The translations under genes were made by a program, and so were the position numbers. Of a DNA stretch of 64,000 bases, positions 6,482 to 36,806 are shown in pieces; the stretch's first letter is position 1, and every line of letters begins with the position of its first letter. The stretch spans positions 264,421-328,420 of the forward strand of contig JBFMHR010000003.1 of assembly GCA_040751795.1 (NCBI GenBank). The letters are read 5' to 3'. The DNA is from Thermoplasmatota archaeon. Lineage in GTDB: Archaea; Thermoplasmatota; Thermoplasmata; UBA10834. The notes under the pieces were generated by a model. That model saw only the letters and a list, made by a program, of their open reading frames with translations. It ran no database searches and had not been told where the DNA came from.

Positions 6482-6515
6482 GGATGCGAGGGGCTCCCGC
6501 CCCTCGAGAGGTTTC

Positions 6516-8030: not shown

Positions 8031-8036
8031 CTCATC

Positions 8037-9050: not shown

Positions 9051-9051
9051 C

Positions 9052-9435
9052 TCAGTTCACCTCTCCTGCACCCGTCTTCTTCAGCAAGGCCGCGTACTGA
9101 GGCGACTGGCCCTTCATCCCCGCCTGCTCGATGAGCCTCCACTTCTTGAGGGCGATGATGTGCCTGACGATCTCCGGCTTAGGTATGCCCGTGGCGTCGT
9201 GCAGCTCGTGCACGGTCCTCAGGCCCCGCTCCATCTCCATCAGGAGCGAGTTCCTCTCCAGGTCCACCGCTGCAGCCTTCTGCACGATGAAGCTGTACCT
9301 CGCGTCGGTGATCGCCTCGCCGAAGACGTTGCCGGATGTGGTGAGCTGCCCCTTCTTCCCGAGGAGCCACCTCACCCGCTCGCCCTCGACGGTCCTCCTG
9401 GCCGCCTCTATCCTGGCCTTCCTGTCCATCCTCAT
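9052..9435 (-). CDS. Small winged-helix-like protein (domain X), free-standing homolog of the C-terminal half of the MvhD fusion at 12916..13707
   Basis: 127 aa. LERNSLLMEMERGLRTVHELHDATGIPKPEIVRHIIALKKWRLI aligns with FERSLILELSRGRARSVKELGQIMDVPTDRVLRHIVALRQKNMI of the fusion protein. ATGA overlap with mvhD upstream. Confidence 0.6.
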   Translation of the reverse strand: MRMDRKARIEAARRTVEGERVRWLLGKKGQLTTSGNVFGEAITDARYSFIVQKAAAVDLERNSLLMEMERGLRTVHELHDATGIPKPEIVRHIIALKKWRLIEQAGMKGQSPQYAALLKKTGAGEVN

Positions 9436-9884
9436 TCACCACCTCGCATCGGTGATGGTCCAAGTTCGTTTATCGTCTCGGTGAACTCCGTGATGGTCTT
9501 CTGGAACTTCTCGCCTTCACCGGCGGAGATCCACTCGAGCCTCAGCCTGTCCGGGTCGTAGCCGAACTGCTGTATCAGCATCTTCAGGAGGGCTATCCTC
9601 CTGCGGGTCCTGTAGTTCCCCCCTATGTAGTGGCAGTCCGCCGGGTGGCACCCCGCGACGAGTATGCCGTCCGCGCCCTTCTTGAACGCCCTCAGGACGA
9701 ACTCCGGGTCCACACGGGCCGAGCACATCACCCTGATGACCCTGAAGTAGGGCGGCATCTGCAGCCTGCTCACGCCCGCGAGGTCCGCGCCCGCGTACGA
9801 GCACCAGTTGCAGCAGAACACGATTATCTTCGGCTCGAACGCGTGCTCGGCCGCACCGTGCGCCTCCTTCGCCTCGCTGCTCAT
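9432..9884 (-). CDS. mvhD: Hydrogenase iron-sulfur subunit MvhD ([2Fe-2S])
   Basis: FCCNWCSYAGADLAG ... GCHxxDCHY motifs. 150 aa. ATGA overlaps with genes on both sides. Confidence 0.85.
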   Translation of the reverse strand: MSSEAKEAHGAAEHAFEPKIIVFCCNWCSYAGADLAGVSRLQMPPYFRVIRVMCSARVDPEFVLRAFKKGADGILVAGCHPADCHYIGGNYRTRRRIALLKMLIQQFGYDPDRLRLEWISAGEGEKFQKTITEFTETINELGPSPMRGGE

Positions 9885-12800
9885 CCCTTCACCTCCTGCT
9901 TCTTCGGCTGCTCAAGCGCAGCATCGATCATCGCCAGTATCTGCTCGTCCCTGAAGCCCTTCTGCGTCAGGGCCCCCGCAGGGCACGCGCCCACGCAGGC
10001 GCCGCAGCCCTTGCACAGCCCCACGTTGACGCTGACCATCTTCTTCTTCGGGTCGTCCTTGTGGGGCACGATGTCCAGCGCCTTGTACTCGCAGGTCGGG
10101 ACGCATATGCCGCAGCCGTCGCACAGGCTCTCGTCGACGCTCGCGACTATGCCCTCCGCCTCGAGGGTCGTCTTCGACAGGACGGTCATCGCCCTCGCGA
10201 CGGCCGCCAGGGCCTGGGATATGCTCTCGTCCACGAACTTCGGCCCGTGCGCCAGCCCCGCGAGGTACACGCCCTCGGTGGCGAAGTCGACCGGCCTCAG
10301 CTTCATGTGCGCCTCGAGGAAGAAGCCCTCCTTGGTCAAGGGCACCTTCAGCATCGGCGCGAGCTCCTCGGCGTCGTGCTGCGGCCTGGTGCCTGACGCG
10401 AGGACGAGGTAGTCGGGCCTGAGGACCAGCAGCTTGCCGGTGTCCTCCTCGGTCACCTTGACCTCCAGCTTCCCGCCCTTGTCCTCCACGACGGGCTTCT
10501 TCTCGTCGTCGAACCTGACGAACTTGACGCCCTTCTGCGAGGCCTCCTTGTAGTACTTCTCCCTGAAGCCGTAGGTCCTGATGTCCCTGAACAGGACGTA
10601 GACCTCCGCCTCCGGGTCCTTCTCCTTGACCTTCGTGGCGGCGGTCATCGTGCCCGTGCAGCACACGCGCGAGCAGTTCGGGTGGTCTCCCTCCCTGGAG
10701 CCGACGCACTGTATGAAGGCGTACGACTTCCCCTTGGCCTCGCCCTTCTTGAGCATCTCCTTGAACTCGAGCAGGGTCTTGACGTTCTTGCTCTTCCCGT
10801 AGAGGTACTCGCCCTCGGGCCTGTGCTCCTGCCCGCCGACCGCGAGTATGACAACGCCGTGCTCGACCTCCTTGCCGTCGGCGAGGGTGGTCTTGAAGTT
10901 CCCGACGTACCCCTCGATGTTCTTGACCTTGGCCCCGAGGTGCACGGTTATGTTCTTCTCCGCCCTGACCTCGGCCTCGAGCCTCTTCACGTGCTCCATC
11001 GGGTCGTCGCCGGAGGGCAGGTAGTGCAGCTTCCTCAGGTTGCCCCCGAGCTCCTTCTCCTTCTCCACGAGGTGGACCTTCACGCCCTGCCTGGCGAGCT
11101 CGAGCGCGGCCACCATGCCGCTCACGCCCCCGCCTATGACCAGGGCCTGCTGGTTCACCTTGATGGTGAGGTTCTCGAGCGGCTCCAGGAGCTTCGACTT
11201 GGCGATGGCCATCCTGACGAGGTCCTTGGCCTTCTTGGTGGCGGCCTTGGGCTCGTGCATGTGGATCCAGGAGCACTGGTCCCTGATGTTCGCCATCTCG
11301 AAGAGGTAGGCGTTGAGCCCGGCCTCCCTGATGGTGTTCTGGAACAGCGGCTCGTGGGTCCTGGGCGTGCAGCTCGCGACCACGACCCTGTTGAGCTTGT
11401 GCTCCTCGACCTTGCCCTTGATGCGCTCCTGCGCGTCCTGGGAGCAGGTGTAGAGGTTCTGCTCGGCGTAGACCACGCCCGGCAGCGTCTTGGCGTACTC
11501 CATGACCTCGGGCACATTGACGACGCCGCCGATGTTGATGCCGCAGTGGCACACGAACACGCCGATCCTCGCCTCCTGCCCGCCGACGTCCTTCTCCTTG
11601 GGGTACTCCTTCTTGGTGACGAGCGTGCCCCTGGCGGAGGCTATCTCCGTCCCGGCCCTGGCCGCGGCCCCGCTCGCCTCGGCGACCGTCATGGGTATGT
11701 CCTTGGGGGACGAGAACGCCCCGCTCACGAACACCCCCGGCCTCGAGGTCTCGACCGGGGTGAACACCCCGGTCTGGCAGAAGCCGTCGTCGTTGAGGCG
11801 GAACTTCATGACGCGGCTCAGCGCCTCCGCGTCGGAGGCAGGCGTCAGCCCGACTGCGAGCACCACGAGGTTGAAGACCTCCTCCTTCGGCTCGCCGTCC
11901 TCGGTGTACTTGAGTATGAGGTTCTTGGTCTTCGGGTCCTCGCTGACCGCGGCTATCCTCGACCGGACGAACCTGATCCCGTACTCGTCCTTGGCGCGGT
12001 TGTAGTACTCGTCGAACTGCTTCCCGAACGCCCTCAGGTCCATGTAGAATATCGAGGGCTTGATGTTGCCGCCGTGCTCCTTGGCTATGATGGCCTCCTT
12101 GACGGAGTACATGCAGCACACGCTGGAGCAGTACTCGTTCCCGCAGTGCTCGTCCCTCGAGCCCACGCACTGTATGAAGGCGATCTTCTCGGGTATGTCG
12201 CCGTCGGAGGGCCTCAGGACGGTGCCGAAGTACGGCCCGGTCGCGCTCAGCATCCTCTCGAACTCGATGCTCGTCACGACGTTCTGGTACACGCCGTACC
12301 CGTACTCGGGCTTCAGGCGCGCGTTGAACTCCTCGAAGCCGGGCGAGACTATGATCGACCCGACCTGGATCTCGAACACCCTCTCCTTCTGGTCGTACGC
12401 GACGGCCTTGGCCTTGCACTCCTCGGCGCATATGCCGCAGCCGATGCACCTCTCCGGGTCTATGGAGTAGACCAGCGGCACGGCCTGGGGGTAGCGCACG
12501 AATATGGCCTTGCGGACCTTCGTGCCCTCGTTGTACTCGTCCACGGTCTCGATGGGGCACTTCTGCGCGCAGCTGCCGCAGCCCGTGCACTTGGTCTCGT
12601 CGACCCTGAACGCCCTCTGCTTGACCGTGACGGTGAAGTTGCCCGCCTGCCCGTCCACTATGGCTATGTCCGCGTTCGTTATCAGCTGGATGTTGTGGTG
12701 CCTGCCCGTCGCGACGAGCTTGGGCGCCATGATGCACATGGCGCAGTCGTTGGTCGGGAAGGTCTTGTCCAGCTGGGCCATGACCCCGCCGATGCTCGGC

Positions 12801-12916
12801 TGCTTCTCCACCAGGTACACCTTGTACCCGGAGTCGGCCAGGTCCAGCGCGGACTGGAGGCCGGATATGCCCCCGCCCACGACCATGACGGCGCCGACCT
12901 TGTCAGTTGCGGCCAT
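9881..12916 (-). CDS. hdrA: Large heterodisulfide reductase subunit A: extra N-terminal FAD/thioredoxin-reductase-like module fused to a complete HdrA
   Basis: About 1011 aa. Residues 1-430 (VVGGGISGLQ, ferredoxin CxxCxxCxxxCP) are paralogous to the free 431-aa protein at 15582..16877. Residues ~450-1012 are a standard HdrA: RIGVFVCHCG Fe-S N-domain, second GGGVSG FAD motif, inserted and C-terminal 2x[4Fe-4S] domains. An alternative GTG start lies 3 nt upstream. Confidence 0.9.
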   Translation of the reverse strand: MAATDKVGAVMVVGGGISGLQSALDLADSGYKVYLVEKQPSIGGVMAQLDKTFPTNDCAMCIMAPKLVATGRHHNIQLITNADIAIVDGQAGNFTVTVKQRAFRVDETKCTGCGSCAQKCPIETVDEYNEGTKVRKAIFVRYPQAVPLVYSIDPERCIGCGICAEECKAKAVAYDQKERVFEIQVGSIIVSPGFEEFNARLKPEYGYGVYQNVVTSIEFERMLSATGPYFGTVLRPSDGDIPEKIAFIQCVGSRDEHCGNEYCSSVCCMYSVKEAIIAKEHGGNIKPSIFYMDLRAFGKQFDEYYNRAKDEYGIRFVRSRIAAVSEDPKTKNLILKYTEDGEPKEEVFNLVVLAVGLTPASDAEALSRVMKFRLNDDGFCQTGVFTPVETSRPGVFVSGAFSSPKDIPMTVAEASGAAARAGTEIASARGTLVTKKEYPKEKDVGGQEARIGVFVCHCGINIGGVVNVPEVMEYAKTLPGVVYAEQNLYTCSQDAQERIKGKVEEHKLNRVVVASCTPRTHEPLFQNTIREAGLNAYLFEMANIRDQCSWIHMHEPKAATKKAKDLVRMAIAKSKLLEPLENLTIKVNQQALVIGGGVSGMVAALELARQGVKVHLVEKEKELGGNLRKLHYLPSGDDPMEHVKRLEAEVRAEKNITVHLGAKVKNIEGYVGNFKTTLADGKEVEHGVVILAVGGQEHRPEGEYLYGKSKNVKTLLEFKEMLKKGEAKGKSYAFIQCVGSREGDHPNCSRVCCTGTMTAATKVKEKDPEAEVYVLFRDIRTYGFREKYYKEASQKGVKFVRFDDEKKPVVEDKGGKLEVKVTEEDTGKLLVLRPDYLVLASGTRPQHDAEELAPMLKVPLTKEGFFLEAHMKLRPVDFATEGVYLAGLAHGPKFVDESISQALAAVARAMTVLSKTTLEAEGIVASVDESLCDGCGICVPTCEYKALDIVPHKDDPKKKMVSVNVGLCKGCGACVGACPAGALTQKGFRDEQILAMIDAALEQPKKQEVKG

Positions 12917-13707
12917 CACTGCTCACCTCCGATGACGATGGTCTTGTATGTTGGAGTGAACCCCTCCGGGTGCTCCATCGCTATCATGTTCTTCTGCCTC
13001 AGGGCGACGATGTGCCTCAGGACCCTGTCCGTAGGGACGTCCATGATCTGCCCCAGCTCCTTGACGGACCTGGCCCTGCCCCTGGACAGCTCGAGGATGA
13101 GGCTCCTCTCGAACTCCTCCTCCGTCGAGGCGTCTATGATCTTGTCGAGCTCCGCCGGGTCCAGCTTGTTGCCGTAGGCGTTGCCCTTGTTGACCAGGTT
13201 CAGCTCCCTGCCGACGAGCGCCTTGAGCCTGAAGGTCTCCGACGCGCCGTCCGCTGCGGCCACCCTGTCGCCCAGCCTCTGGTCCTTCCTGACCTTGCTC
13301 GGGCCGAGCCTCCTTATGTTCTCGGTGAACTCGGTCACGACCTTGGAGAACTTCTCCCCCTCGGACGCGGAGACCCACTCCAGCCTGAGCCTCTCGGGCT
13401 CGAGCCCGCTCTCCTCGAGCAGGCGCTTCATCAGCCTCACGCGCTTCTCGGTGTAGTAGTTCCCGGAGATGTAGTGGCAGTCGCCTATGTGGCAGCCGCC
13501 CAGGAGCACGCCGTCCGCCCCGGCCCTGAATATGTCGAGGACGAGGTGGGGGCTGATCCTGGTCGAGCACATGACCCTCACGGCCCTTATGTTCGTGGGG
13601 TACTGGTACCTGCTGACCCCGCACAGGTCGGCGCCCGCGTACGAGCACCAGTTGCACAGGAACCCTATGATCTTCGGCTCGAACTCCGCCTTGGGTGCGT
13701 CGGCCAT
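12916..13707 (-). CDS. MvhD domain fused to C-terminal winged-helix-like domain X
   Basis: The N-terminal ~140 aa are MvhD (FLCNWCSYAGADL, GCHIGDCHY). The C-terminal ~115 aa are homologous to the free-standing ORF 9052..9435. Confidence 0.8.
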   Translation of the reverse strand: MADAPKAEFEPKIIGFLCNWCSYAGADLCGVSRYQYPTNIRAVRVMCSTRISPHLVLDIFRAGADGVLLGGCHIGDCHYISGNYYTEKRVRLMKRLLEESGLEPERLRLEWVSASEGEKFSKVVTEFTENIRRLGPSKVRKDQRLGDRVAAADGASETFRLKALVGRELNLVNKGNAYGNKLDPAELDKIIDASTEEEFERSLILELSRGRARSVKELGQIMDVPTDRVLRHIVALRQKNMIAMEHPEGFTPTYKTIVIGGEQ

Positions 13708-13710
13708 GGC

Positions 13711-15585
13711 TCACACCTCCTCCTGGAGCGCGGCCTTCGCCTCTGCGAGCAGCTGCGCGTCGGTGTAGTTGGTCATGGTTATCGCGCCCTCGGGGCAGGT
13801 CGCGCCGCAGCAGCCGCAGCCCTTGCACGCCGCCACGATGACCTCCGCCAGGCCCTTGTCGTTCTTCCTGAGCGCGCCGTACGGGCACACCTCTATGCAG
13901 GTTCCGCACCCGGTGCACCTGGTCTCGTCGACGACCGAGGTCAGCGCCTCGGCCTGGACGTAGCCCTTGGCCATCGGGATCGCGGCCCTCGAGGCCGCGG
14001 CCGAGCCCTGCGTGACCGCCTCGGTTATGTCCGCCGGGCCCTTGCAGGTCCCGGCGACGTATATGCCGTCGGTGGCGAAGTCGACCGGCCTCAGCTTCAC
14101 GTGCGCCTCCAGGAAGAAGCCCTCCTGGCCCAGCGGCACCTTGAGCATCTTGGACAGCTCGCCCGCGTCCGGCTGCGCCACGAGCGGGGTCGACAGGACG
14201 ACCATGTCGACGGGCATCGTCCTCTCGAGCTTCAGGGTCTCGTGGAAGTACGTGACCTTCAGCTGGTTGTCCTCCATGAAGACCTTGGGCAGGTGGTCGA
14301 GGGTGTACCTGTTGAACTTGACCCTCTTCTCCCTGGCCTTGTTGTAGGTGAGCTCGTGCTCCACGCCGTAGGCCATGACGTCCCTGTTGAACACGGTGAC
14401 CTCGATCTTCTCCGACGGCCCGAGCTTGACCTCCTCGGCCTCGCCCTCGGCCTCGCCGCGCCCGCGCCTCCTGCGCCTGCGCTCGAGGATCTCGTCGGTC
14501 GCCTTCTTCTCGACGGGGATCTTCTCGACGACGGTCCCGGCCTTCTCCATGACCCCGAGCATGTTCTCGTAGTTGTCCACGATGTTGATGGCGTTCTTGA
14601 TGGCGACGTTGCAGCAGATCCTGGAGCAGTAGGACATCTTCTGGCCCCTGGACCCGACGCACTGTATGAACGCCACGCTCTTGAGCTTCGGGAGGGTCTT
14701 CTTCTTGCACAGGATCTCGAACTCCGTCAGGGTGACGACGTTAGGGTACTGGTTGTAGCCGTACAGGCCCTCGGGGACGAACTCCAGCGCACCGGTGGCG
14801 ACGACTATCGTGCCGACCTTGAACTTCTTCCCCTCGCCCCCCTTGGGGGCGATGACGACCTCGTAGTTGCCTATGAAGCCGTCGATGCTCTTGACGGTCG
14901 AGTTCAGGTGCAGCGTGATGTTCTTGTGCCCCTTGACCTTGTCTATCAGGGGCTTTATGGTGTCCGTCGCGCCCTTCTCGGTGACGTAGAGGTTGTTCAG
15001 GAGCCTGACGAAGCCCCCGAGCTCCCCCTCCCTCTCGACGAGGTGCACGGGGAAGCCCATGTCGGCCAGCGAGGCCGCGGCGGTCATCCCGCTGACGCCG
15101 CCGCCAATGACCAGCCCGACCGGCTCGACGTCGACCTTCGCCTCCTCCTGGGGCTTTAGCAGCCTGGCCCTCGCGACGCCCATGCGGATCAGGTCCTTGG
15201 CCTTCTTCGAGGCGAGGTCCTTCTCCTTCATGTGCACCCACGAGCAGTGCTCCCTGATGTTCACGAACGTGAACAGGTACTTGTTGAGGCCGGCGCCCTC
15301 GCAGGTCGCCTGGAACAGGGGCGCGTGCGTCCTGGGCGTGCAGCTCGCCACTATGACCCTGTTCAGGTTGTGCTTCCTGATGGCCTCCCTGATGCTGCCG
15401 AGCCCGTCCTCCGCGCAGGTGTACATGTTCTGGGTCGCGTACACCACGTCGGGGAGCGTCTTCGCGTAGTCCGCCACGGTGGGGACGTCCACGAACCCGC
15501 CTATGTTGCTCCCGCAGGAGCAGACGAACACGCCTATCCTCGGCTTGTCGACCTCGTTGACCTTGTTCTCAGCCATGTCGCTCAT
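13711..15585 (-). CDS. hdrA: HdrA, complete-HdrA module (the C-half of a split large HdrA)
   Basis: Begins MSDMAENKVNEVDKPRIGVFVCSCG. The ATG overlaps the TGA stop of the upstream 431-aa gene (ATGA). Carries FAD-binding GGGVSG, an inserted ferredoxin and a C-terminal 2x[4Fe-4S] ferredoxin domain. Confidence 0.85.
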   Translation of the reverse strand: MSDMAENKVNEVDKPRIGVFVCSCGSNIGGFVDVPTVADYAKTLPDVVYATQNMYTCAEDGLGSIREAIRKHNLNRVIVASCTPRTHAPLFQATCEGAGLNKYLFTFVNIREHCSWVHMKEKDLASKKAKDLIRMGVARARLLKPQEEAKVDVEPVGLVIGGGVSGMTAAASLADMGFPVHLVEREGELGGFVRLLNNLYVTEKGATDTIKPLIDKVKGHKNITLHLNSTVKSIDGFIGNYEVVIAPKGGEGKKFKVGTIVVATGALEFVPEGLYGYNQYPNVVTLTEFEILCKKKTLPKLKSVAFIQCVGSRGQKMSYCSRICCNVAIKNAINIVDNYENMLGVMEKAGTVVEKIPVEKKATDEILERRRRRRGRGEAEGEAEEVKLGPSEKIEVTVFNRDVMAYGVEHELTYNKAREKRVKFNRYTLDHLPKVFMEDNQLKVTYFHETLKLERTMPVDMVVLSTPLVAQPDAGELSKMLKVPLGQEGFFLEAHVKLRPVDFATDGIYVAGTCKGPADITEAVTQGSAAASRAAIPMAKGYVQAEALTSVVDETRCTGCGTCIEVCPYGALRKNDKGLAEVIVAACKGCGCCGATCPEGAITMTNYTDAQLLAEAKAALQEEV

Positions 15586-16877
15586 CCCCCCGCCTGGGCC
15601 ATGGCCTCGACCGCCTTCGCGGCCGCGCTCGAGCCCTGGGCGACCGCCTCGGGTATGTCCGCCGGGCCGGCCGCGTACCCCGCGAGGTACACGCCGGGCT
15701 TGACGGTCCTGCCCGGGCCGAGGATCCTGTCCGCAGACTCCAGGAACCCGAACTCGTCGACCTTCAGCCCGAGTATCTTCGCCAGCTCGGCCGTCTCCTT
15801 CCTGGGCACCAGCGTGGTGGCCAGGACGACGAGGTCGAACTCCTCGGACTGCTGCCTGCCGCCCACGTCGTACACGACGACGGGGTTGTGTGTGTCCGGG
15901 TTCTCCTGGACCGTGGCGTCGGAGTTGATGTACCTGACGCCGTAGTCGCGCTTGGCCCTCTCGACGTACTCGTAGAAGCCCTTGGCGCAGGCCCTCATGT
16001 CCTTGTAGAATATGGTGGACTCGATGTCGTCGTAGTGCTCCCTCGCCAGCATCGACTCCTTGGTCGAGTGCATGCAGCACACGGCGCAGCAGTACGGGTG
16101 CCCGACCTGCGGGTTCCTCGAGCCGACGCACTGTATGAACGCCATCTTCTTCGGCCTCTCCTTGTCGGAGCGCCTCTGGATGTGGCCGTGGGTCGGGCCC
16201 GCGGCGTTGATCATCCTCTCGTACTCCATCGCCGTGAAGACGTTGGGGTACCGGCCGTAGCCGTACTCCGTGGACGGGGTCGGGTCCCAGACGTCGAAGC
16301 CGGTGGCGACTATGATCGCGGCGACCTCTATCTCCAGGACCTGGTCCTTCATCTCGTAGTTGATGGCGCCCCTCTTGCAGACCTTCATGCAGTTTCCGCA
16401 CTTGTCCTTGGTCAGCTTGAGGCAGTGCTCCTTGTCGATGGTCATGACCCTGGGGACGGCCTGCATGAACGGGATGTATATCGCCTTCCTCGTGGTGAGG
16501 CCCATCTCCCAGTCGTTGACGACCTTGCTCGGGCACTTCTCGAGGCACTCCCCGCAGCCGGTGCACTTGGTCTCGTCGACGTACCGGGCCTTCTTGAGCA
16601 CCTTCACCTTGAAGCTGCCGACGCTCCCCTCGACGCCGATCACCTCAGAGTAGGTGATCACATTGGTGTTCGGGTGGCTGAAGCAGTCGGCCATCTTGGG
16701 CGCCAGTATGCATATAGAGCAGTCGTTCGTAGGGAAGGTCTTGTCCAGCTGGGCCATCCTCCCACCGATGCTGGGGGTCTTCTCGACCAGATGGACGATC
16801 AGTCCCTTGTCCGCCAGGTCCAGCGACGCCTGTATCCCGGCGACTCCCCCTCCTATCACCATAACCGCCTTCTCCAT
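15582..16877 (-). CDS. HdrA-like FAD-dependent oxidoreductase module (the N-half of a split large HdrA)
   Basis: 431 aa: VIGGGVAGIQASLDLA, DKTFPTNDC, one ferredoxin CTGCGECLEKCP. Paralogous to residues 1-430 of both large HdrAs. Lacks the RIGVxVCHCG N-domain and the C-terminal ferredoxins. Confidence 0.85.
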   Translation of the reverse strand: MEKAVMVIGGGVAGIQASLDLADKGLIVHLVEKTPSIGGRMAQLDKTFPTNDCSICILAPKMADCFSHPNTNVITYSEVIGVEGSVGSFKVKVLKKARYVDETKCTGCGECLEKCPSKVVNDWEMGLTTRKAIYIPFMQAVPRVMTIDKEHCLKLTKDKCGNCMKVCKRGAINYEMKDQVLEIEVAAIIVATGFDVWDPTPSTEYGYGRYPNVFTAMEYERMINAAGPTHGHIQRRSDKERPKKMAFIQCVGSRNPQVGHPYCCAVCCMHSTKESMLAREHYDDIESTIFYKDMRACAKGFYEYVERAKRDYGVRYINSDATVQENPDTHNPVVVYDVGGRQQSEEFDLVVLATTLVPRKETAELAKILGLKVDEFGFLESADRILGPGRTVKPGVYLAGYAAGPADIPEAVAQGSSAAAKAVEAMAQAGG

Positions 16878-17085
16878 TCAAAGTCCTCCACGAGTCCTAA
16901 ACGATGGTTCCCCTAGTCTACGCCTCACTCGGCTCCGTGATCCTGAACTCAAGGGGTTTGCGCGCCCTGCCGGGCCCCTCTCCGTAACCTTTCCTCTGTA
17001 TTATCTGTTTCGTTGGACGGGCGACGAGTGTCGCGCCCCCGGACCTCACGTCCGTGCGGATATCGTCGGCCGGCAGGCGTCCGCG

Positions 17086-17529
17086 TCACTTGGCCGAAAG
17101 GACCTCCTTCGCCTCGGTGTCCTTCTGGATCTCCGTGACCTTGACCTTGAAGGGGGCCTTCTTCCTGCCTTGCATCCCCTCGGACGCGAACCTCTGGCAG
17201 TTCGGGTATGTGCAGGGGGTGCACTTCTTGTCCTTGCACGACAGCTCTATGAGCACGAGCCTGTCCCTGGTGTCCGCGGCCCCGGTGACCGGCTTCCTGA
17301 CCTCGAACATCTTGGTCATCCGCGTCTCGTAGGGCTTCTTCTTCGGCTCTATCCTGGCGAACCTCTGGCAGTTCGGGTAGGTGCACGGGTCGCACTTCTT
17401 GTCCTTGCACGACAGCTCGATCAGCAGGACCCTGTCGCCCTGCCCCTTCGCCTGGGCCGCCTCCTTGGCGTCCTTCTCCTTCTTCTCCGTCTTCGGTGTC
17501 ATCCTAACAGTCCTTCGCGTTTCATTCAA
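17086..17529 (-). CDS. Small basic Cys-rich protein with an internal tandem duplication (2 x C-x5-C-x2-C-x4-C)
   Basis: Contains LIELSCKDKKC(D/T)PCTYPNCQRFA twice, 57 aa apart. The underlying ~81-nt DNA segments at 17187..17267 and 17358..17438 are about 89% identical. Lys-rich composition in a GC-rich genome. Overlaps the stop of the upstream gene. Confidence 0.55.
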   Translation of the reverse strand: MNETRRTVRMTPKTEKKEKDAKEAAQAKGQGDRVLLIELSCKDKKCDPCTYPNCQRFARIEPKKKPYETRMTKMFEVRKPVTGAADTRDRLVLIELSCKDKKCTPCTYPNCQRFASEGMQGRKKAPFKVKVTEIQKDTEAKEVLSAK

Positions 17530-19087
17530 GCTGCTCAGCGATGGCGACGCTGAGGTCCTTGATCGGTATGTCGACCTGCTCCTTGGGCACCTGGGTCTTG
17601 TTCTCCTGGACGCAGGAGAGGTGTATGAGGCACTTGTAGCACCCCGTCACGAGGCACTCTGCCCCCGTCCTCTTGGCCTCCTTCAGCCTCTCGACCTGCA
17701 GCCTCCTGGAGGTCTCGTCGCAGGTGGCCCATGCGCTCACGCCGCAGCAGAGGGCCTTGTCCCGGACGTTCTCCATCTCCAGGATCTGCGTGCCCTTGGA
17801 GGCGGTCAGGGCGCTCCTGGGCTGGTCGTATATGCCCATGTGCCTGCCGAGCCTGCACGAGTCCTGGAAGGTGAGCTTCCGGGCGCTGTCCTTCAGCCTG
17901 AGCCTGCCCTCCTTGACCAGGTCGTCCACGAACTCCGAGATGTGGACCATCTCGAAGGGGTGGTCCCCGGCCAGCTCCTGGTAGTCCAGGTCGAACGTGC
18001 GCATGCACTCGGGGCACGAGAAGACGACCTTCTTGGCCCCCGAGGCCTTTATGACCTCGAGGTTCTTCTTCATCAGCTTCTGGAGCGCCGCCTCGTCCCC
18101 CGTCCAGTTGAGGTCGTGCCCGCAGCAGACCTCGTCGTTGCTGACGGCCGGGACAATGCCCGCCCTGTTCATAATCTTTACGACCGCCCGGGGTATGCCA
18201 GACAGGTCCAGCTTCCTCTCCTTGAATATCGCGTCGAAGTACGGCGCGCAGCCCGTGAAGAAGAAGACCTCGCCCTTGTCGGCTATCTTGAGTTCGGGGG
18301 TGACCCAGCTGAGCCTGTCCTGCTTGAAGCTCCCGTGGGCCATGATCCTCATCACGCCCTGCATGAGCCCGCCCTGGGAGCAGGCGGGGTCGTTCTCGAG
18401 GGCGACGGCCTCGCCCCTGAGGCCCCGTATGAACCCGGAGTAGTCGACCTTGTACGGGCACATGGAGTTGCACTGCTCGCAGGTGACGCAGGTCCATATG
18501 TCCTTGTCCTTAGAGAGGTTGCCCACCTGCCCCTCGGTCGCCCTCAGGACTATGGTCCTCGGGGCGAACTCGGTGTTGTACTTGGCGACGGGGCAGACGG
18601 TGGTGCACTTCCCGCACTCGACGCAGTCGAAGGCCCCCGTGTCCTCGATGAGCGCGTCTATGCGCTGCTTGAGGGTGTCGGGGTTCCTGGTGGCCCTCTT
18701 CACCTTGGGCATCGGGTTGGGGCCGAGCGCCCTGACCTGCTCGGTGAACTCCTTCATGGTCGCGGCGAACTTCTGGCCCTCCGAGGCGGAGATCCACTCC
18801 AGCCTCATCCGGTCCCTGCCCACGCCGAGCCTGTCGAGGACCTCCTTCACGGACTCCATCCGCTTCTCCGCCTCGACGTTCCCGGATATGTAGTGGCAGT
18901 CGCCAATGTGGCACCCGGCGACGAGCACTCCGTCCGCGCCGAGCTCGAGCGCCCTCACGATGAAGTAAGGCTCGACCCTGCCGGAGCACATCACCCTTAT
19001 GACGCGCGCGTTGGGCGGGTACTGCATCCTGCCCACGCCCGCGAGGTCCGCGCCCGCGTACGAGCACCAGTTGCAGCAGAAGGCCAC
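17522..19087 (-). CDS. MvhD-domain / HdrD-like (HdrC + HdrB) fusion protein; start codon uncertain (GTG at 19087 or CTG at 19118 overlapping the hdrA stop)
   Basis: N-terminal FEPNIVAFCCNWCSYAGADLAG...GCHIGDCHY (MvhD). Two CxxCxxCxxxCP motifs (HdrC-like). C-terminal Cys-rich CCG-type domains (CCGHDL..., ALCCGVSAWATC..., TGCYKC) as in HdrB/HdrD. No ATG or TTG lies between the hdrA stop and the conserved FCC motif. Confidence 0.75.
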   Translation of the reverse strand: MAFCCNWCSYAGADLAGVGRMQYPPNARVIRVMCSGRVEPYFIVRALELGADGVLVAGCHIGDCHYISGNVEAEKRMESVKEVLDRLGVGRDRMRLEWISASEGQKFAATMKEFTEQVRALGPNPMPKVKRATRNPDTLKQRIDALIEDTGAFDCVECGKCTTVCPVAKYNTEFAPRTIVLRATEGQVGNLSKDKDIWTCVTCEQCNSMCPYKVDYSGFIRGLRGEAVALENDPACSQGGLMQGVMRIMAHGSFKQDRLSWVTPELKIADKGEVFFFTGCAPYFDAIFKERKLDLSGIPRAVVKIMNRAGIVPAVSNDEVCCGHDLNWTGDEAALQKLMKKNLEVIKASGAKKVVFSCPECMRTFDLDYQELAGDHPFEMVHISEFVDDLVKEGRLRLKDSARKLTFQDSCRLGRHMGIYDQPRSALTASKGTQILEMENVRDKALCCGVSAWATCDETSRRLQVERLKEAKRTGAECLVTGCYKCLIHLSCVQENKTQVPKEQVDIPIKDLSVAIAEQLE

Positions 19088-19113
19088 TATGTTCGGCTCG
19101 AAACGCTCCTCGG

Positions 19114-22100
19114 TCAGGCGCCCACCTCCTCGTCCTTCCCCTCGGGCGCGAGGAGCGCCTCGAGCATGGTCATGATCTGGTCGGTCTTGAAGTGCTTCGG
19201 CCTTATCGCCCTGGAGCAGCACGCGACCGCGCAGGAGCCGCAGCCCTTGCACAGAGCCTCGTTGATCTTCGACTTGAACACCCCTGGCGAGACCTCCTCG
19301 ACCCTGGGCGCCCCGTACTCGCACAGCTCCTCGCACCTGCCGCATGCGATGCACTTCTCGGGGTCTACCTCCGAGACGACGCCCTCCGCCTCGATGAACG
19401 GCTTGGACAGGACCGTGTTGACCCTGGCGGCCGCCGCAAGGGCCTGGGATATGCTCTCGTCTATGAGCCTCGGGGAGTGCGCCAGGCCGCAGAGGAATAT
19501 GCCGTCGGTGGCGAAGTCGACCGGCCTCAGCTTCATGTGCGCCTCGAGGAAGAAGCCCTCCCTCGTCAGCGGGACCTTGAGCATCTGGGCCAGGTCCTTG
19601 TTGTCAGGGTTGGGCCTGACGGCCGCGTTGAGGACCAGGTAGTCGGGCCTGATGGTCACGGTCTGCTCTATGAACTGCTCGTCCACCTCGACGGTGAGGT
19701 GGCCCCCGTGCTCGCTCACCCTCGGGGGCGACGAGGGGTCGTACCTCAGGAACACCACGCCGAGCCTCGCGGCCTCGTTGTAGTTCTCCTCCCTGAAGCC
19801 GAAGGTCCTGATGTCCCTGTAGAGGACGTACACGGCCGTCCCCGGGTGGTCCTGCTTGATCTTCATCGCGTTGGCCATGGCCGTGGAGCAGCAGATCCTG
19901 GAGCAGTTGGGGTGCTCCTCGTCCCTCGAGCCGACGCACTGGATTATGACCACGCTCTTCGCCTTGAAGTCCTTGCCCGAGACCATCTCCCCGAGGTCGG
20001 TCTGCCTGATGACCTTCGGGTCCTTCCCGAAAAGGTACTGCTCGGGCTCGTGCTCGACGGCCCCCGTCGCCACGACTATGGCGCCGTGCTGGACCTTCTC
20101 CCCGCTCCCGAGGGTGGTCTCGAAGTTGCCGATGTAGCCCTTGACCTCGGCCACGGTGTCCTCCAGGTGGACCTTGATCCTCGGGTCCCCCATGACCTCC
20201 TTCTCCAGCTTCCTGAAGGTCTCCTGGGGGTCGACCCCTATGAGGGTGCGGTGTATCCGCCTGAGGTGGCCGCCGAGGTGCTTGCTCTTCTCCACGACGT
20301 GCACGTCGAAGCCGCTCCTGGCGATCTCCAGGGCGGCGGTCATGCCGCTCAGGCCGCCCCCAATGACGAGCGCGGACTGGGTGACGGGTATCCTGGGCTG
20401 CGGGAGCGCCTCGAGCGTGGCCGCCTTGGCGACGGCCATGCGGACCAGGTCCTTGGCCTTCTCCGTCGCGCGCTCCGGCTCCCTCCTGTGCACCCACGAG
20501 CACTGGTCCCTGATGTTGGCCATCTCGAACAGGTACTTGTTCAGGCCCGCCTCCTTCACAGTGTTCTGGAAGAGCGGCTCGTGGGTCCTGGGGGTGCAGC
20601 TCGCGACCACGACCCTGTTGAGGTCGTGCTTCTCGATGGTCTCCCTGATCTTCTTCTGGGTGTCCTGCGAGCAGGTGTAGAGGTTCTGCTCAGCCACGAT
20701 CACGTGCTGGAGAGTCTTGGCGTACTCCATGACCTCCGGCACGTCCACGACCGAGCCGATGTTGATGCCGCAGTGGCAGACGAAGACGCCGATCCTCGGC
20801 TCCTTGCCCGCGACCTCCTTCTCCTTGGGGTACTCCTTCTTTGTGACGAGTGTCCCCCTGCTCTCCGAGAGGAGCGCCGCCGCCTTGCCGGCGGCGCCGC
20901 TGGCCTGCGCGATCGAGTCGGGGATGTCCTTGGGCCCGGAGAACGCGCCGCACACGTAGACGCCGGGGACGGATGTCTCAACCGGGGACAGCTCGTCCGT
21001 CTCGCAGAAGCCGAACTTGTTGAGGTCGACGCCCAGCACCTTGGCGAGCGCGCCCGTCGCCTCCGGCGGCCTCGCGCCCGCCGAGAGCACCACGAGGTCG
21101 AACGCCTCCTCGGCGATGTCGGCCCCCTCGAGGTAGCTGAGGATGACGTTGCCCGTGGCAGGGTCCTCCTGCAGCTTGGATATCCTGTTGTTCCTGAGGA
21201 CGCGGACGCCGTACTCGTTCTCCGCGCGCATCAGGTATTCCTCGAACTCCTTGCCGAAGGCCCGCGTGTCCATGAAGAAGATGGCCGTGTCGAGGCCCGG
21301 GACGTGCTCCTTGCCGATGACGGCCTGCTTGAGGGCGGCCATGCAGCAGTAGGAGGAGCAGTAGGTGTTCCCCGTCTGCGCGTCCCTCGAGCCGACGCAC
21401 TGGACGAAGGCGATCTTCTTCGGGACGTCGCCGTCCGAGGGGCGGATCACATGCCCCTCCGTCGGGCCCGACGCGCTCAGCATCCTCTCGAACTCGATGT
21501 TGGTCAGGACGTTGGCGTACACCCCGTGCCCGTACTCCGCCTTCTTCGACGCCTCGAAGACGTCGTAGCCGGGGCTGAGGATGATCGAGCCCACCTCGAC
21601 GACCTCCTCCTTGTCCGGCTTCTCGGAGTAGCTGATGGCCTTCGCCTCGCAGAATTTCTCGCAGATGCCGCAGCCGATGCAGAGGCCCCTGTCTATGGTA
21701 TAGACCAGGGGCACGGCCTGGGGGAAGGGCACGTAGATGGCCTTGGCCGGCGCGAGCTCCCTGTCGAAGGCGTTCAGCCCCTCGACCGGGCAGTGCTCCG
21801 CGCAGACGCCGCAGCCCGTGCACTTCTCCTCGATGATGTACCTGGAGCGCCTGGTGAGGGTGACCTTGAAGTCGCCGGCCTTCCCGTCGACCTTCTTGAG
21901 CTCCGCGTTGGTGAGCATGGTGATGTTCTCGTGCCTGCCCGTGGCTACGAGCTTGGGGGACACGATGCACATGGCGCAGTCGTTGGTCGGGAAGGTCTTG
22001 TCCAGCTGGGCCATGGTGCCGCCTATGCTGAGGCCGGCCTCGAGTATGTACACCTTGAAGCCGGAGTCGGCGAGGTCCAGGGCCGCCTGTATGCCGGCGG

Positions 22101-22149
22101 GGCCGCCGCCCACGACGAGGACGGCGCCGACCTTCTTGTGCTCTGCCAT
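19114..22149 (-). CDS. hdrA: Large heterodisulfide reductase subunit A (second copy of the tandem-module architecture)
   Basis: 1011 aa. Same arrangement as 9881..12916, about 60-70% identical to it by eye. Two GxGxxG FAD motifs, RIGVFVCHCG, several 4Fe-4S motifs. Confidence 0.9.
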   Translation of the reverse strand: MAEHKKVGAVLVVGGGPAGIQAALDLADSGFKVYILEAGLSIGGTMAQLDKTFPTNDCAMCIVSPKLVATGRHENITMLTNAELKKVDGKAGDFKVTLTRRSRYIIEEKCTGCGVCAEHCPVEGLNAFDRELAPAKAIYVPFPQAVPLVYTIDRGLCIGCGICEKFCEAKAISYSEKPDKEEVVEVGSIILSPGYDVFEASKKAEYGHGVYANVLTNIEFERMLSASGPTEGHVIRPSDGDVPKKIAFVQCVGSRDAQTGNTYCSSYCCMAALKQAVIGKEHVPGLDTAIFFMDTRAFGKEFEEYLMRAENEYGVRVLRNNRISKLQEDPATGNVILSYLEGADIAEEAFDLVVLSAGARPPEATGALAKVLGVDLNKFGFCETDELSPVETSVPGVYVCGAFSGPKDIPDSIAQASGAAGKAAALLSESRGTLVTKKEYPKEKEVAGKEPRIGVFVCHCGINIGSVVDVPEVMEYAKTLQHVIVAEQNLYTCSQDTQKKIRETIEKHDLNRVVVASCTPRTHEPLFQNTVKEAGLNKYLFEMANIRDQCSWVHRREPERATEKAKDLVRMAVAKAATLEALPQPRIPVTQSALVIGGGLSGMTAALEIARSGFDVHVVEKSKHLGGHLRRIHRTLIGVDPQETFRKLEKEVMGDPRIKVHLEDTVAEVKGYIGNFETTLGSGEKVQHGAIVVATGAVEHEPEQYLFGKDPKVIRQTDLGEMVSGKDFKAKSVVIIQCVGSRDEEHPNCSRICCSTAMANAMKIKQDHPGTAVYVLYRDIRTFGFREENYNEAARLGVVFLRYDPSSPPRVSEHGGHLTVEVDEQFIEQTVTIRPDYLVLNAAVRPNPDNKDLAQMLKVPLTREGFFLEAHMKLRPVDFATDGIFLCGLAHSPRLIDESISQALAAAARVNTVLSKPFIEAEGVVSEVDPEKCIACGRCEELCEYGAPRVEEVSPGVFKSKINEALCKGCGSCAVACCSRAIRPKHFKTDQIMTMLEALLAPEGKDEEVGA

Positions 22150-22150
22150 G

Positions 22151-22609
22151 TCAGACCCCCTCCCCGTAGATCGGGCCGAGCCTCTGGAGCTCGGCGACCA
22201 TCTCCTTCACGACGTTCGCGAACTTCTGCCCCTCGGAGCCCGCTATCCACTCGATCCTGAACCTCTGCGCCTCTATCCCCGCGTCCTCGAGGAACGATGA
22301 CAGGAAGTCGCCGCGCATGGCGGCCTTCTCGTTGCCGTTGATGTAGTGGCAGTCCGCCGGGTGGCACCCGGCGACTATGACGCCGTCCGCCCCGAGCTCG
22401 AAGGCCTTGAGCACGAAGGCAGGGTCCACCCTCCCGGAGCACATGACCCTGACTATCCTCACGTTCGGGGGGTACTGTATCCTGGTCGTACCGGCGAGGT
22501 CGGCCCCCGCGTACGAGCACCAGTTGCAGCAGAAGGCCACGATCCTCGGCTCGTACCCGGCCTGCTCCTCGGCCGCCTCGTGCTTCTTCGCGTGCGTGGT
22601 CACGGTCAC
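22151..22609 (-). CDS. mvhD: MvhD-type [2Fe-2S] subunit (standalone, GTG start overlapping the hdrB stop as GTGA)
   Basis: EPRIVAFCCNWCSYAGADLAG, GCHPADCHY. 153 aa. Confidence 0.8.
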   Translation of the reverse strand: MTVTTHAKKHEAAEEQAGYEPRIVAFCCNWCSYAGADLAGTTRIQYPPNVRIVRVMCSGRVDPAFVLKAFELGADGVIVAGCHPADCHYINGNEKAAMRGDFLSSFLEDAGIEAQRFRIEWIAGSEGQKFANVVKEMVAELQRLGPIYGEGV

Positions 22610-23523
22610 GACCCCCTGAGCTTCCGCAGGAGCGAGTGGGCCGACACGTGGTGCGTGTCGAAGCCCAGCGAGATCGGGTCTATGCCCATGGCGAGCGCCT
22701 GGAACTGGGAGACGTGCATCACGGGGATGCCGTCCTTGGAGAAGGCCTTCTGGGCGTTGTCGAACTGGAGGAGGCAGAACGGGCAGCCCGTGACGACGCA
22801 GTCCGCGCCCACGGCCCCGATCTTCCTGCACTTGTCCTCGGTGAGCGAGTTGGCCAGGTCCACGACGTGCGACCTCACGCCGCCGCCCGCGCCGCAGCAG
22901 TCGAGCTTGTCGTCGTAGTCCACGCTCGTCGCGCCGCACGCCTCGACTATGTTGTCCAGGAGGACGGGGTTGTTGGGGTCGTCTATGGTCCTGCTCTCGG
23001 TCGGCCTGAGGTAGTGGCAGCCGTAGTGGACCGCGACCCTGATGTTCTTCAGCGGCCGCTTCACCTTCGCCTGGATGGCCTCGATCCCGATGTCCTTGGC
23101 CATGAGCTCGATGTAGTGCCGGACGGTGACGGGCTCGAAGACCCTCCTCTTCCCCTCGCTCTTCTTCGGCACGCCGGTGTACTTCTTGCCGACCTGCGCC
23201 AGGACCCTGTTCACCTTGCCCATGCTCTTCGGGTCCTTGAGGTACTCGGTGGCCTTCATGAGGGACGTCAGGCAGCCGTTGCAGACCGTCAGGATGTCCC
23301 TCCTCTCGTCCTGCGCCAGGACGAGGTTCCTCGCCGCGAGGAGCAGCCAGGTCTCCTTGTCGGTGGAGTAGAATATCCCCGGGACGGGGCAGCACGAGAA
23401 CTCGGGTATGTCCTTGACGTCGAGGTCGAAGCCGTCCTTGCCGCAGACCCATCTCACGGCGTACTCGATGCCCGGGTACCTGTTGGGTATGACGCACCCG
23501 AAGAAGTAGGCGTAGGACGTCAC
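22606..23523 (-). CDS. hdrB: Heterodisulfide reductase subunit B
   Basis: Two CCG domains (CCPVPG..., CCGAGGG...CPFC). GTG start preceded by GGAGGTG. 305 aa. Confidence 0.9.
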   Translation of the reverse strand: MTSYAYFFGCVIPNRYPGIEYAVRWVCGKDGFDLDVKDIPEFSCCPVPGIFYSTDKETWLLLAARNLVLAQDERRDILTVCNGCLTSLMKATEYLKDPKSMGKVNRVLAQVGKKYTGVPKKSEGKRRVFEPVTVRHYIELMAKDIGIEAIQAKVKRPLKNIRVAVHYGCHYLRPTESRTIDDPNNPVLLDNIVEACGATSVDYDDKLDCCGAGGGVRSHVVDLANSLTEDKCRKIGAVGADCVVTGCPFCLLQFDNAQKAFSKDGIPVMHVSQFQALAMGIDPISLGFDTHHVSAHSLLRKLRGS

Positions 23524-24104
23524 GGGTTCACCTCCGACTCGATGCCGATGAGCTTGTCGTACTTGGAGGCGTGGACGAGGACGCCGATCTCCCTGAGGAC
23601 GTTCTTGAAGCCCGGGCTGAACGTGTGGATCTCGCCGAGGCCCAGCTCCTTCCTTATCTTGTTGATCTCCTCGTCGGGCTTGACGCTCTGGCCGTACCTG
23701 ACCAGGTTGGTGGCCGCGACCTTTATGAACGGCGGTATGACGCCCTCGCGGACGGCGATGTGCCTCAGCGCGATCATGACCTCGGCCGGGTTGATGTCGG
23801 CGGGGCAGTGCTCGTAGCACCTGTAGCACGTGGCGCAGACCCACCTGGTGCCGAGCGTGTAGTTCTTCAGCCCGAACTGGCAGAACTTCATGATGCTCCT
23901 GGTCTTGTAGTCGATCTTGAGGCTGATGGGGCACACGCCGGTGCAGTTGCCGCACTGGAGGCAGGTCATGACGTCCTTGCCGCTGTACTTCTTGATCTCC
24001 TTGGCGAAGCCGGGCTCCAGCTGGGACTCGTCGATGACCTTCTCCTCGACCAGCTCCTCCTTGAGCCCGCTGATGAAAGTCTTCTCGACCTCTCCCATGC
24101 TCAC
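23520..24104 (-). CDS. hdrC: Heterodisulfide reductase subunit C
   Basis: Two [4Fe-4S] motifs: CLQCGNCTGVCP and CATCYRCYEHCP. 194 aa. Confidence 0.9.
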   Translation of the reverse strand: MSMGEVEKTFISGLKEELVEEKVIDESQLEPGFAKEIKKYSGKDVMTCLQCGNCTGVCPISLKIDYKTRSIMKFCQFGLKNYTLGTRWVCATCYRCYEHCPADINPAEVMIALRHIAVREGVIPPFIKVAATNLVRYGQSVKPDEEINKIRKELGLGEIHTFSPGFKNVLREIGVLVHASKYDKLIGIESEVNP

Positions 24105-26188: not shown

Positions 26189-26324
26189 GGTTCCCCCTCC
26201 TACTCGACTTGCCGCGTCGAAGTGCCGGATGGCCCGAGTGACCCCGCGGGAAGGCACCATTTCCTGCCGACTGGCGCTCCCACTCAGACCAGGTGTCGGA
26301 CGAGTGCAGATAATAAAGAGGTGC

Positions 26325-34871: not shown

Positions 34872-35231
34872 TCATACCGTCGCGACCGCCATCCGCCTCG
34901 GAATGCTGCCTGGTCCGGGGAACTCTGCAGCTGGTCGGGCGAGATGTGCCTATGAATGGGGCAGAGGGATTCAAGCTCCTGCAGAGCCAATGTGTCCGGA
35001 GCCTGAGGAAATCAAGCGGGACTTCGTACGGGGACGACCCGTTTGAGTCCTCCGCTACCCCCCCTCATCGCCATCAACGAGATCGATCTGCGCCTGAAGG
35101 TTGATCGCCTCAGGCCGGCACGGCAAGCCCCCTTAGATGGACAGCCGCCCAGCAGTAGGCATGTGTCCGACAACTTTAAAGTTCACATACATAATGGGAT
35201 ATATCCGATAATTATTCATATTAGTGGCACA

Positions 35232-36658: not shown

Positions 36659-36754
36659 CGCGACGCTTTCCGCAGACATCCTCCAGACTCCGCCTGGGCA
36701 GCATGCCCGAAGCCGGAGGATTTCAGACGACGCCATGCCCGGCACCCCCGGTGC

Positions 36755-36760
36755 AAAAAA
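36755..36760 (-). terminator. Oligo-T tract (TTTTTT) downstream of tRNA-Trp
   Basis: T6 run about 47 nt 3' of the tRNA on the minus strand. Archaeal terminators are typically oligo-T. Confidence 0.3.
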
Positions 36761-36806
36761 CCCCTTGATTTCTCGGACCGATGACTATACTGGCTATGCC
36801 TAGGAG

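Follow-up and report, generated by a model that had tools for sequence, protein, structure and literature searches.

The window analysed here is a stretch of 64,000 nucleotides (nt) from a Thermoplasmatota archaeon (GenBank assembly GCA_040751795.1, contig JBFMHR010000003.1, positions 264,421 to 328,420), and our subject is a small gene on its minus strand, termed gene X, which lies among genes for Mvh hydrogenase and heterodisulfide reductase (Hdr) subunits and whose product we tentatively regard as a metal-binding partner of an Hdr-like complex. Upstream of X is the gene for an MvhD-HdrD fusion protein, which we call HdrD-like, and downstream is the gene for an HdrA-like flavoprotein of 431 amino acids (aa). 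The features of X and of its junction with the HdrD-like gene are listed below; related loci carry L numbers.

17086..17502, minus strand: gene X, 138 aa with 8 cysteines (Cys) in two four-cysteine (Cys4) units, defined by its open reading frame (ORF) and translation
17086-17088, minus strand: stop codon of X
17503..17521, minus strand: spacer of 19 nt from the HdrD-like stop to the ATG of X, read from the sequence
17511-17516, minus strand: GAAGGA resembling a Shine-Dalgarno (SD) sequence, within the spacer, 9-14 nt upstream of the ATG of X
17522-17524, minus strand: stop codon of the HdrD-like gene
17356..17436, minus strand: unit 1 core, aa 23-49, DRVLLIELSCKDKKCDPCTYPNCQRFA, defined by the direct repeat and codon alignment
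17368..17409, minus strand: Cys motif 1, C32-x4-C37-x2-C40-x4-C45, from a motif scan, all four Cys invariant
17290..17355, minus strand: unit 1 tail, aa 50-71, RIEPKKKPYETRMTKMFEVRKP, basic, with invariant K54, K55, P57, T60, F66, K70 and P71
17185..17265, minus strand: unit 2 core, aa 80-106, DRLVLIELSCKDKKCTPCTYPNCQRFA, defined by the direct repeat and codon alignment
17197..17238, minus strand: Cys motif 2, C89-x4-C94-x2-C97-x4-C102, from a motif scan, all four Cys invariant
17128..17184, minus strand: unit 2 tail, aa 107-125, SEGMQGRKKAPFKVKVTEI, with invariant K115, P117, F118, K121, T123 and E124

X is a genuine protein-coding gene under purifying selection. Its GC content at the three codon positions is 0.47/0.43/0.92, and the ratio of nonsynonymous to synonymous substitution rates (dN/dS) against orthologues is 0.16-0.45; on these two grounds we trust the frame that opens with the ATG at 17502. 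The N-terminus, MTPKTEKK, matches the N-termini of homologues or their equivalents, which places the start at this ATG, and the orthologues have AAGGA or GGAGGA motifs 8-12 nt before theirs, similar to the SD-like GAAGGA of X. A TTG at 17529 was considered as the start and rejected, since it is not conserved and is CTG in L011 and L013. Likewise rejected were plus-strand and other-frame ORFs over 16654-17553, by the signal of GC content at third codon positions (GC3) and by the conservation of the minus-strand frame. A first-pass annotation, made from the DNA letters alone, had X overlapping the stop of the MvhD-HdrD gene; because the TTG is not conserved and orthologues start at the equivalent of ATG 17502, there is no such overlap, and the conserved ATG sits 19 nt past the stop. 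A 4-nt overlap of the two genes does exist in one relative, L088. The description of the product as small and lysine-rich was correct: there are 24 lysines among its 138 residues, along with the 8 cysteines, and its isoelectric point (pI) is 9.46. The C-terminus (…KEVLSAK) is without cysteine. No RNA element was found by Rfam in or beside X, the best match having E=0.74.

Within the gene, one direct repeat links 17186-17265 to 17357-17436 (80 nt, 90% identical, 171 nt from start to start), as had been noticed at first reading; it was the sole repeat family found, and Tandem Repeats Finder reported no 171-nt array at X. Both copies encode, on the minus strand, the peptide (D)R..LIELSCKDKKC.PCTYPNCQRFA, also as first described. 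Its cysteine spacing had been given as C-x5-C-x2-C-x4-C and needs correction to C-x4-C-x2-C-x4-C (S-C-KDKK-C-xP-C-TYPN-C). When 5.8 billion protein clusters were searched, 210 homologues came back, with lengths of 118-157 aa and identities of 62-99%; each is either unnamed or called 'hypothetical', and they derive from JGI, ENA, NCBI and Logan assemblies. Motif counts were taken on the 120 listed of these 210 matches, and the x5 pattern matches none of the 120. Compared in frame, the two 27-codon cores are identical at 72 of 81 nt and 24 of 27 residues. Of the 57 aa in each unit, high similarity is confined to these 27: the tails PKKKPYETRMTKMFEV and RKKAPFKVKVTEI have drifted apart, as has the remainder of the unit beyond the core, PKKKPYETRMTKMFEVRKP in unit 1 versus RKKAPFKVKVTEIQK in unit 2, and each tail is kept among orthologues yet is unlike the tail of the other unit. 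The tail of unit 1 is probably an extended strand. In the orthologue alignment all eight cysteines are invariant, together with the P, Y and P of the loop and the preceding E. Across all forms, distant single-unit relatives included, the invariant pattern is E-x-[SA]-C-x4/5-C-x-P-C-x-Y-P-x-C, with an arginine two residues later that is nearly invariant. The module is thus one of about 50 aa, made up of a short hydrophobic strand (YLLIEL), the loop E-x-S-C-x4-C-x-P-C-x-Y-P-x-C-x-R and a basic tail (KKxPF...).

The two-unit architecture is ancient, not recent. The first-pass annotation had taken the duplication to be recent and had raised an assembly artefact as a possibility, and a two-unit structure of either origin would be biologically meaningless. 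Such an origin would accord with the 89-90% DNA identity of the cores and with the one-unit versions found in a closely related strain and at L044, which are described below. We nevertheless regard it as effectively refuted. Both motifs, in the x4 pattern, occur in 118 of the 120 homologues listed, in most of the loci from GTDB-representative genomes (L010-L056), including members only 41-55% identical, and in 66 of the 72 metagenome loci that were retrieved through the neighbouring 431-aa gene; the two-unit form spans the family down to 40-50% identity, with its spacing conserved. The two tails differ from one another while each is conserved among orthologues, and identity between cores is about the same within a genome (mean 0.77) as in orthologous and cross-genome comparisons (0.71-0.73). 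That the duplication was made by an assembler is contradicted by its recurrence in independent JGI, ENA, NCBI and Logan assemblies, among them L020, a 1.98-Mb record labelled 'chromosome: 1'. Moreover, the copies share no exact match longer than about 26 nt, which should fall below typical final assembly k-mers.

The identity of the cores at the DNA level is explained by amino-acid conservation together with codon bias. Over 23 genes of the window AAG makes up 98% of Lys codons and TGC 96% of Cys codons, GAG reaches 97% and TTC 99%, and GC3 is 0.9-0.96. When the two core peptides were back-translated at random with this codon usage, 67.9 +/- 2.5 of 81 nt were identical, so that about 84% is expected against the 89% observed (72/81; P=0.07). 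Gene conversion was considered as a cause of the core identity and is not needed, the excess over expectation being small at most. Any two conserved peptide repeats in this genome would look about 85-90% identical as DNA, and the general lesson is that where GC3 exceeds 0.9, DNA identity of about 90% between conserved peptide repeats does not equate to recent duplication.

One-unit alleles are rare exceptions, seen in L089 and L044. L089 (ERZ1649853 NODE-2698) belongs to a strain that shares 97.7% identity with the window; one 171-nt unit is gone, leaving a protein of 81 aa (P0042), and the breakpoint falls exactly inside the 80-nt repeat. L044 is a second, independent case and lies at a contig end. 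Either recombination has really deleted a unit in these two alleles, or the assemblies have collapsed the repeat.

The genes around X form a large Mvh/Hdr cluster, whose features are as follows.

17522..19120, minus strand: MvhD-HdrD fusion ('HdrD-like', 532 aa), upstream of X, consisting of MvhD (FlpD), an HdrC-like 2x[4Fe-4S] part and an HdrB-like CCG part
15582..16877, minus strand: HdrA-like flavoprotein, 431 aa, downstream of X, with Pfam matches to Pyr_redox_2, Fer4 and FAD_oxidored
16878..17085, minus strand: intergenic gap after X, 208 nt, with a conserved block resembling an archaeal B recognition element and TATA box (BRE/TATA-like), CAACGAAACAGATAATAC, at about 16998-17015
22151-24104, minus strand: HdrC, HdrB and MvhD of the first block, assigned by synteny with L001 and by ORF lengths
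5966..26260, minus strand: the whole Mvh/Hdr cluster, from Pfam scans, with the same order in L001, L004 and L007

Pfam identifies FlpD (5.7e-56), CCG (1e-22, in two stretches) and Fer4_17/Fer4_8 in the HdrD-like protein, and both of its CCG motifs, read from the translation, are intact. The first block runs HdrA, HdrC, HdrB, MvhD, tandem HdrA (1011 aa, 19114-22149), MvhD-HdrD fusion and X. After the gap, the second block is opened by the 431-aa HdrA-like protein (HdrA-N431), which has the FAD domain with an inserted ferredoxin and is without the N-terminal domain of HdrA, and continues with HdrA (624 aa), MvhD, a second tandem HdrA (1012 aa), MvhD, a 127-aa ORF, MvhG, MvhA and a HycI-like protease. 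HypF and HypD are encoded upstream of the cluster.

In all loci from L001 to L060 that have flanking sequence, except L051, the order is HdrD-like gene, X, 431-aa HdrA-like gene, and this borne-out tie to the Hdr operon was among the claims made at first reading. The same flanks are kept by the single-unit versions of X in L057-L060; L162 has a single unit too. The distance from the HdrD-like stop to X is 0-26 nt across loci. By this tight order with hdr genes, conserved over diverged genomes, X belongs to the operon. The reverse search through the 431-aa gene found X in 68 of 72 loci; in the other four (L137, L156, L158 and L160), which are more divergent and whose 431-aa gene is 67-76% identical, the HdrD-like gene is joined directly to the 431-aa gene. 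Since X is absent from these four loci and has a single unit in others, it is a tightly linked accessory and not a universal or core component. At L156 the HdrD-like protein has a Cys-free C-terminal extension at the place of X.

The BRE/TATA-like block in the gap after X, CAACGAAACAGATAAKAC, is conserved when the gap is aligned with its counterparts at three orthologous loci, and the next ATG follows about 110 nt downstream; the 208-nt gap contains no Rfam family. The block may serve as promoter to the second hdr/mvh block, whose transcript would then begin with a long leader, and in that case X would close the first operon. We infer that X is co-transcribed as the last gene of an hdrA-hdrC-hdrB-mvhD-hdrA(tandem)-mvhD/hdrD-X operon.

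The cluster at 5966-26260 is unusually redundant. It encodes one canonical HdrA, two tandem HdrA of about 1011 aa and one split pair (431 + 624 aa), five MvhD domains and two HdrB-type CCG modules, with a single MvhAG hydrogenase and the HypD/HypF maturases alongside. The 127-aa ORF between mvhD and mvhG (9052-9435, minus strand) has no Pfam match in the window, and its counterparts in L001 and L007 give weak or faint matches to HTH_5 (ArsR-type helix-turn-helix); it may be a regulator embedded in the operon. Elsewhere in the window, three ORFs at 35043-35861, 35858-36658 and 36932-37234 have a GC3 of only 0.60-0.67 against about 0.9 for the rest, and this compositionally odd stretch, 35043-37234, may be foreign DNA.

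Profile searches for the motif, which the first-pass annotation had proposed, recovered a conserved and narrow family and no named profile above threshold. Among 1.84 billion representative proteins, only 29 clusters were found, all of 151 aa or less, which argues that X was not split off a larger protein, and there are no domain fusions among them; the same search also turned up forms with a single unit, 48-100 aa long. Across 185,579 species genomes, a scan gave 70 loci, labelled Thermoplasmata, Methanomassiliicoccales or 'Methanobacteriota', all from metagenome-assembled genomes (MAGs) of Thermoplasmatota except for one 'Paceibacterota' contig, and no named cultured species is among the hits. 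That contig, L064 (DATEYD010000314.1), has a PyrK-paralogue-HMGL context and a sequence near-identical to that of a Thermoplasmatota locus, L065, and is probably mis-binned. As far as can be seen, the family is restricted to Thermoplasmatota. In Pfam, NCBIfam and PDB there is no relative of X above threshold; the sub-threshold noise in Pfam and NCBIfam, besides a PF04060 match discussed below, consists of IBR, EsV_1_7_cys, L37ae and an IS91 zinc finger. Sequence and profile searches against PDB returned nothing relevant, and a literature search for the motif found no relevant paper. Judged by these searches, the family is previously undescribed, narrow and covered by no profile library.

Many genomes that bear X also encode a tail-less paralogue of about 48-50 aa, which is rarely called by gene callers and often starts with GTG or TTG; its consensus is MPxxVxKWNxKYEQIETSCRxKYHCTPCTYPNCQRxVRLKK..FGK. 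Examples lie in L061-L083 (for instance L080 6001-6222 and L082 6001-6186), and further single-unit paralogues were seen at L085 5001-5150 and L086 5001-5147. In all 19 loci from L061 to L079 the paralogue follows genes for cysteine desulfurase (iscS), NifU_N (IscU), PyrD and PyrK; a convergent HMGL-like gene comes after it, and this context is kept even where PyrK is only 38% identical. Another single-unit paralogue lies between iscU and an hdrC-like gene, the latter followed by a membrane-protein gene. Most, not all, paralogue contexts are therefore made up of iron-sulfur (Fe-S)/flavin redox or Fe-S assembly genes.

From the sequence evidence we propose, at a confidence a little short of even, that X serves the Hdr-like complex as a small subunit, either carrying electrons or acting as an adaptor, and that it binds metal, probably as Fe-S clusters. 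The proposal draws on the four invariant, closely spaced cysteines of each unit, on the likeness of the loop to a [4Fe-4S] loop and on the obligate multi-cluster flavoenzyme neighbours, and it is from these that we infer metal binding, cluster type and an electron-transfer role. Each Cys4 loop would bind a metal centre, for which an Fe-S cluster is more probable than zinc. As a 'mini-ferredoxin' dedicated to this complex, X would dock on its HdrD-like and HdrA-like proteins to pass on electrons or to act as an adaptor, and the complex would be of the Mvh/Hdr type, with H2-dependent, flavin-based electron bifurcation. Other Fe-S flavoenzymes or Fe-S assembly (PyrDK, IscSU) might be served by the 48-aa paralogues with one unit.

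The [4Fe-4S] loop in question is that of PF04060, found in RnfB/RsxB and in the large subunit of the corrinoid iron-sulfur protein (CFeSP; PDB 8ahx_B, 7zc6_B, 9eri_B, 4djd_C and 2h9a_A), with the form C-x2-C-x-[YF]-P-x-C-x2-[FY]-A. The Pfam profile matches full-length X with 18.7 bits (E=1.4e-3), both units aligning at profile positions 6-27, and a PF04060 match is precomputed for four homologues. When the unit profile was compared by hhalign with PF04060-type loops from solved RnfB/CFeSP chains, P was 3.9e-4 over 19 columns. The cysteine triads also correspond, C-[SDTN]-P-C-T-Y-P-N-C-Q-R-F-A in X and C-G-x-C-G-[FY]-P-x-C-x-x-[FY]-A in RnfB/CFeSP. The loop of X thus resembles the PF04060 loop at the motif level only, and homology is not demonstrated.

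A number of observations weigh against our proposal. The 18.7 bits of X fall short of the gathering threshold of PF04060, which is 23 bits; a single unit reaches 15.9 bits, and of 28 units just one has a match at E<1. The alignment made by hhalign has a probability of only 36%. The fourth cysteine of PF04060 is about 16 residues downstream of the triad, whereas that of X is 4-5 residues upstream, and no cysteine follows the triad within a unit of X. Classical ferredoxins are acidic proteins, and X is strongly basic. One tail-less paralogue is found on its own, upstream of a THUMP/ThiI_fer gene and with no redox gene next to it, and the absence of X from 4 of the 72 HdrD/HdrA-N431 loci, along with its single-unit state elsewhere, marks it as accessory and not core. 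Structure prediction with AlphaFold2 gave a predicted local distance difference test (pLDDT) score of 38 for full X (67 sequences) and of 60 for one unit (28 sequences), neither model being usable, and a Foldseek search of the unit model against PDB found nothing. This failure is compatible with a domain that folds only around a cofactor or partner.

Four invariant cysteines per unit would also suit a non-redox structural or assembly factor: an adaptor, carrying Zn(Cys)4 or a cluster, that would hold Hdr subunits together, or a protein that delivers Fe-S clusters, such as the non-cubane clusters of HdrB/HdrD. The basic tails could lie along acidic partner surfaces, paralogues adjoin iscS/iscU, X is dispensable in some related clusters and has one or two units, and a partner-dependent peptide would likewise fail to fold in isolation. 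We nonetheless think this role rather unlikely: the paired CxxC knuckles of zinc ribbons and rubredoxins are missing, there is no match to zinc-finger or Fe-S carrier families (IscA, Nfu, HypA), and the motif is closer to the redox-cluster loop of PF04060 than to a zinc site. Of the zinc-ribbon or rubredoxin-like electron carrier put forward in the first-pass annotation, the metal-binding or carrier role is still the most plausible, while the affinity to those two folds is not supported, as each unit has one CxxC and X has no rubredoxin or zinc-ribbon match by Pfam, NCBIfam, PDB sequence or fold. The high pI, with Cys4 loops followed by Lys/Arg-rich stretches, could instead point to a small redox- or Fe-S-sensing regulator of the WhiB-like kind, which would bind nucleic acid or the transcription machinery and control the downstream hdr/mvh block; X lies directly upstream of the 208-nt gap with its conserved promoter-like block, and one paralogue adjoins the THUMP gene, which is of an RNA-modification type. 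This we consider very unlikely, given that Pfam and NCBIfam detect no DNA- or RNA-binding domain, that coupling to the HdrD-like gene at 0-26 nt, sometimes with overlap, is typical of an enzyme subunit, and that the cluster already has a putative HTH gene.

A further possibility concerns the cysteines as thiols. X could be a redox-active dithiol/disulfide protein, a substrate or thiol relay of the CCG site of the HdrD-like protein, as DsrC is for DsrK, replacing CoM-S-S-CoB, which these archaea probably do not make. It directly follows the gene for an HdrD-like protein with two intact CCG motifs, and the operon has a separate HdrBC pair, so that two disulfide-reductase sites are encoded. Moreover, related basal Thermoplasmata have been described as lacking methanogenesis, with 'an unknown heterodisulphide' as the substrate of their Hdr/Mvh (bioRxiv 10.1101/2020.03.09.984617). 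The C-x-P-C element is reminiscent of the CxxC motifs of the thioredoxin type, and failure to fold in AlphaFold is compatible with a flexible substrate arm. However, the fixed spacing of four invariant cysteines per unit is the signature of a metal site and would not be needed by a two-cysteine pair; the cysteines are in the middle of the domain and not on a C-terminal arm; Pfam and NCBIfam searches show no homology to DsrC, TusE or thioredoxin; and the paralogues adjoin PyrK and IscU, which deal in single electrons and in clusters and not in disulfides. A dithiol protein of this kind is therefore improbable in our view. More doubtful still is the wider proposal that X is the protein disulfide/redox partner of Hdr in non-methanogenic Thermoplasmatota, its Cys4 loops, as dithiol/disulfide pairs or as a cluster-thiol hybrid, being the physiological acceptor for the CCG site as DsrC is for that of DsrK. 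If this were true, it would identify the 'unknown heterodisulfide' of H2-dependent bifurcating complexes, and the 48-aa paralogues would act as a small redox currency of general use, through which PyrDK and IscSU are connected to the same pool.

To return to X as a probable Fe-S subunit, its interest lies in the setting. Electron-bifurcating complexes of the Hdr/Mvh type, whose electron acceptors are a ferredoxin partner and a 'heterodisulfide', are widespread in uncultured non-methanogenic archaea, and X, a conserved and unannotated 14-16 kDa protein encoded beside the HdrD-like catalytic subunit, is a concrete and expressible candidate for one of these partners. The analysis also defines a compact Cys4 module that is absent from profile libraries, including the 48-aa paralogue beside iscSU and pyrDK.

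Several known systems come closest to X. Beyond the loop itself, X shares with PF04060 proteins a tie to low-potential electron-transfer complexes, and it differs in that its loop is flanked by a strand and a basic tail, whereas the PF04060 context is helical, and in that X is free-standing and duplicated, whereas PF04060 is the N-terminal domain of a larger protein. Compact four-cysteine loops can bind [4Fe-4S], as in endonuclease III/MutY (C-x6-C-x2-C-x5-C), or [2Fe-2S], as in SoxR, and WhiB-like proteins are small and basic. Endonuclease III/MutY, plant-type [2Fe-2S] and WhiB-like proteins have in common with X close cysteines with a central C-x2-C, which shows that 14 residues are enough for a Cys4 loop to hold an Fe-S cluster; they differ from X in spacings and protein context, and the Pfam and PDB searches detected no homology. 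The C-x4-C-x2-C spacings of plant-type [2Fe-2S] ferredoxins are those of X, but their fourth cysteine comes about 29 residues on, in a beta-grasp fold, where that of X is at +4, and X has no Fer2 profile match.

DsrC, the substrate of the HdrD-like DsrK of DsrMKJOP, is, like X, a small cysteine protein whose gene is associated with that of an HdrD-type CCG protein outside methanogenesis. There is no sequence similarity between the two, X having no DsrC/TusE (PF04358) Pfam match, and the four close invariant cysteines of each unit of X contrast with the two on the C-terminal arm of DsrC; no sulfur-metabolism genes were seen in the Mvh/Hdr cluster. The mvh and hdr operons commonly include a dedicated (poly)ferredoxin gene, such as mvhB. 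Unlike 2x[4Fe-4S] ferredoxins and MvhB, X has neither a CxxCxxCxxxCP motif nor a Fer4 Pfam match, but the context suggests a functional analogy with the MvhB-type (poly)ferredoxins of mvh/hdr/fwd operons: X is small and cysteine-rich, it stands at the end of an Mvh/Hdr operon and it has putative cluster sites in tandem. The role proposed for X would thus parallel that of the dedicated (poly)ferredoxins of mvh/hdr operons, in a protein unrelated to them in sequence.

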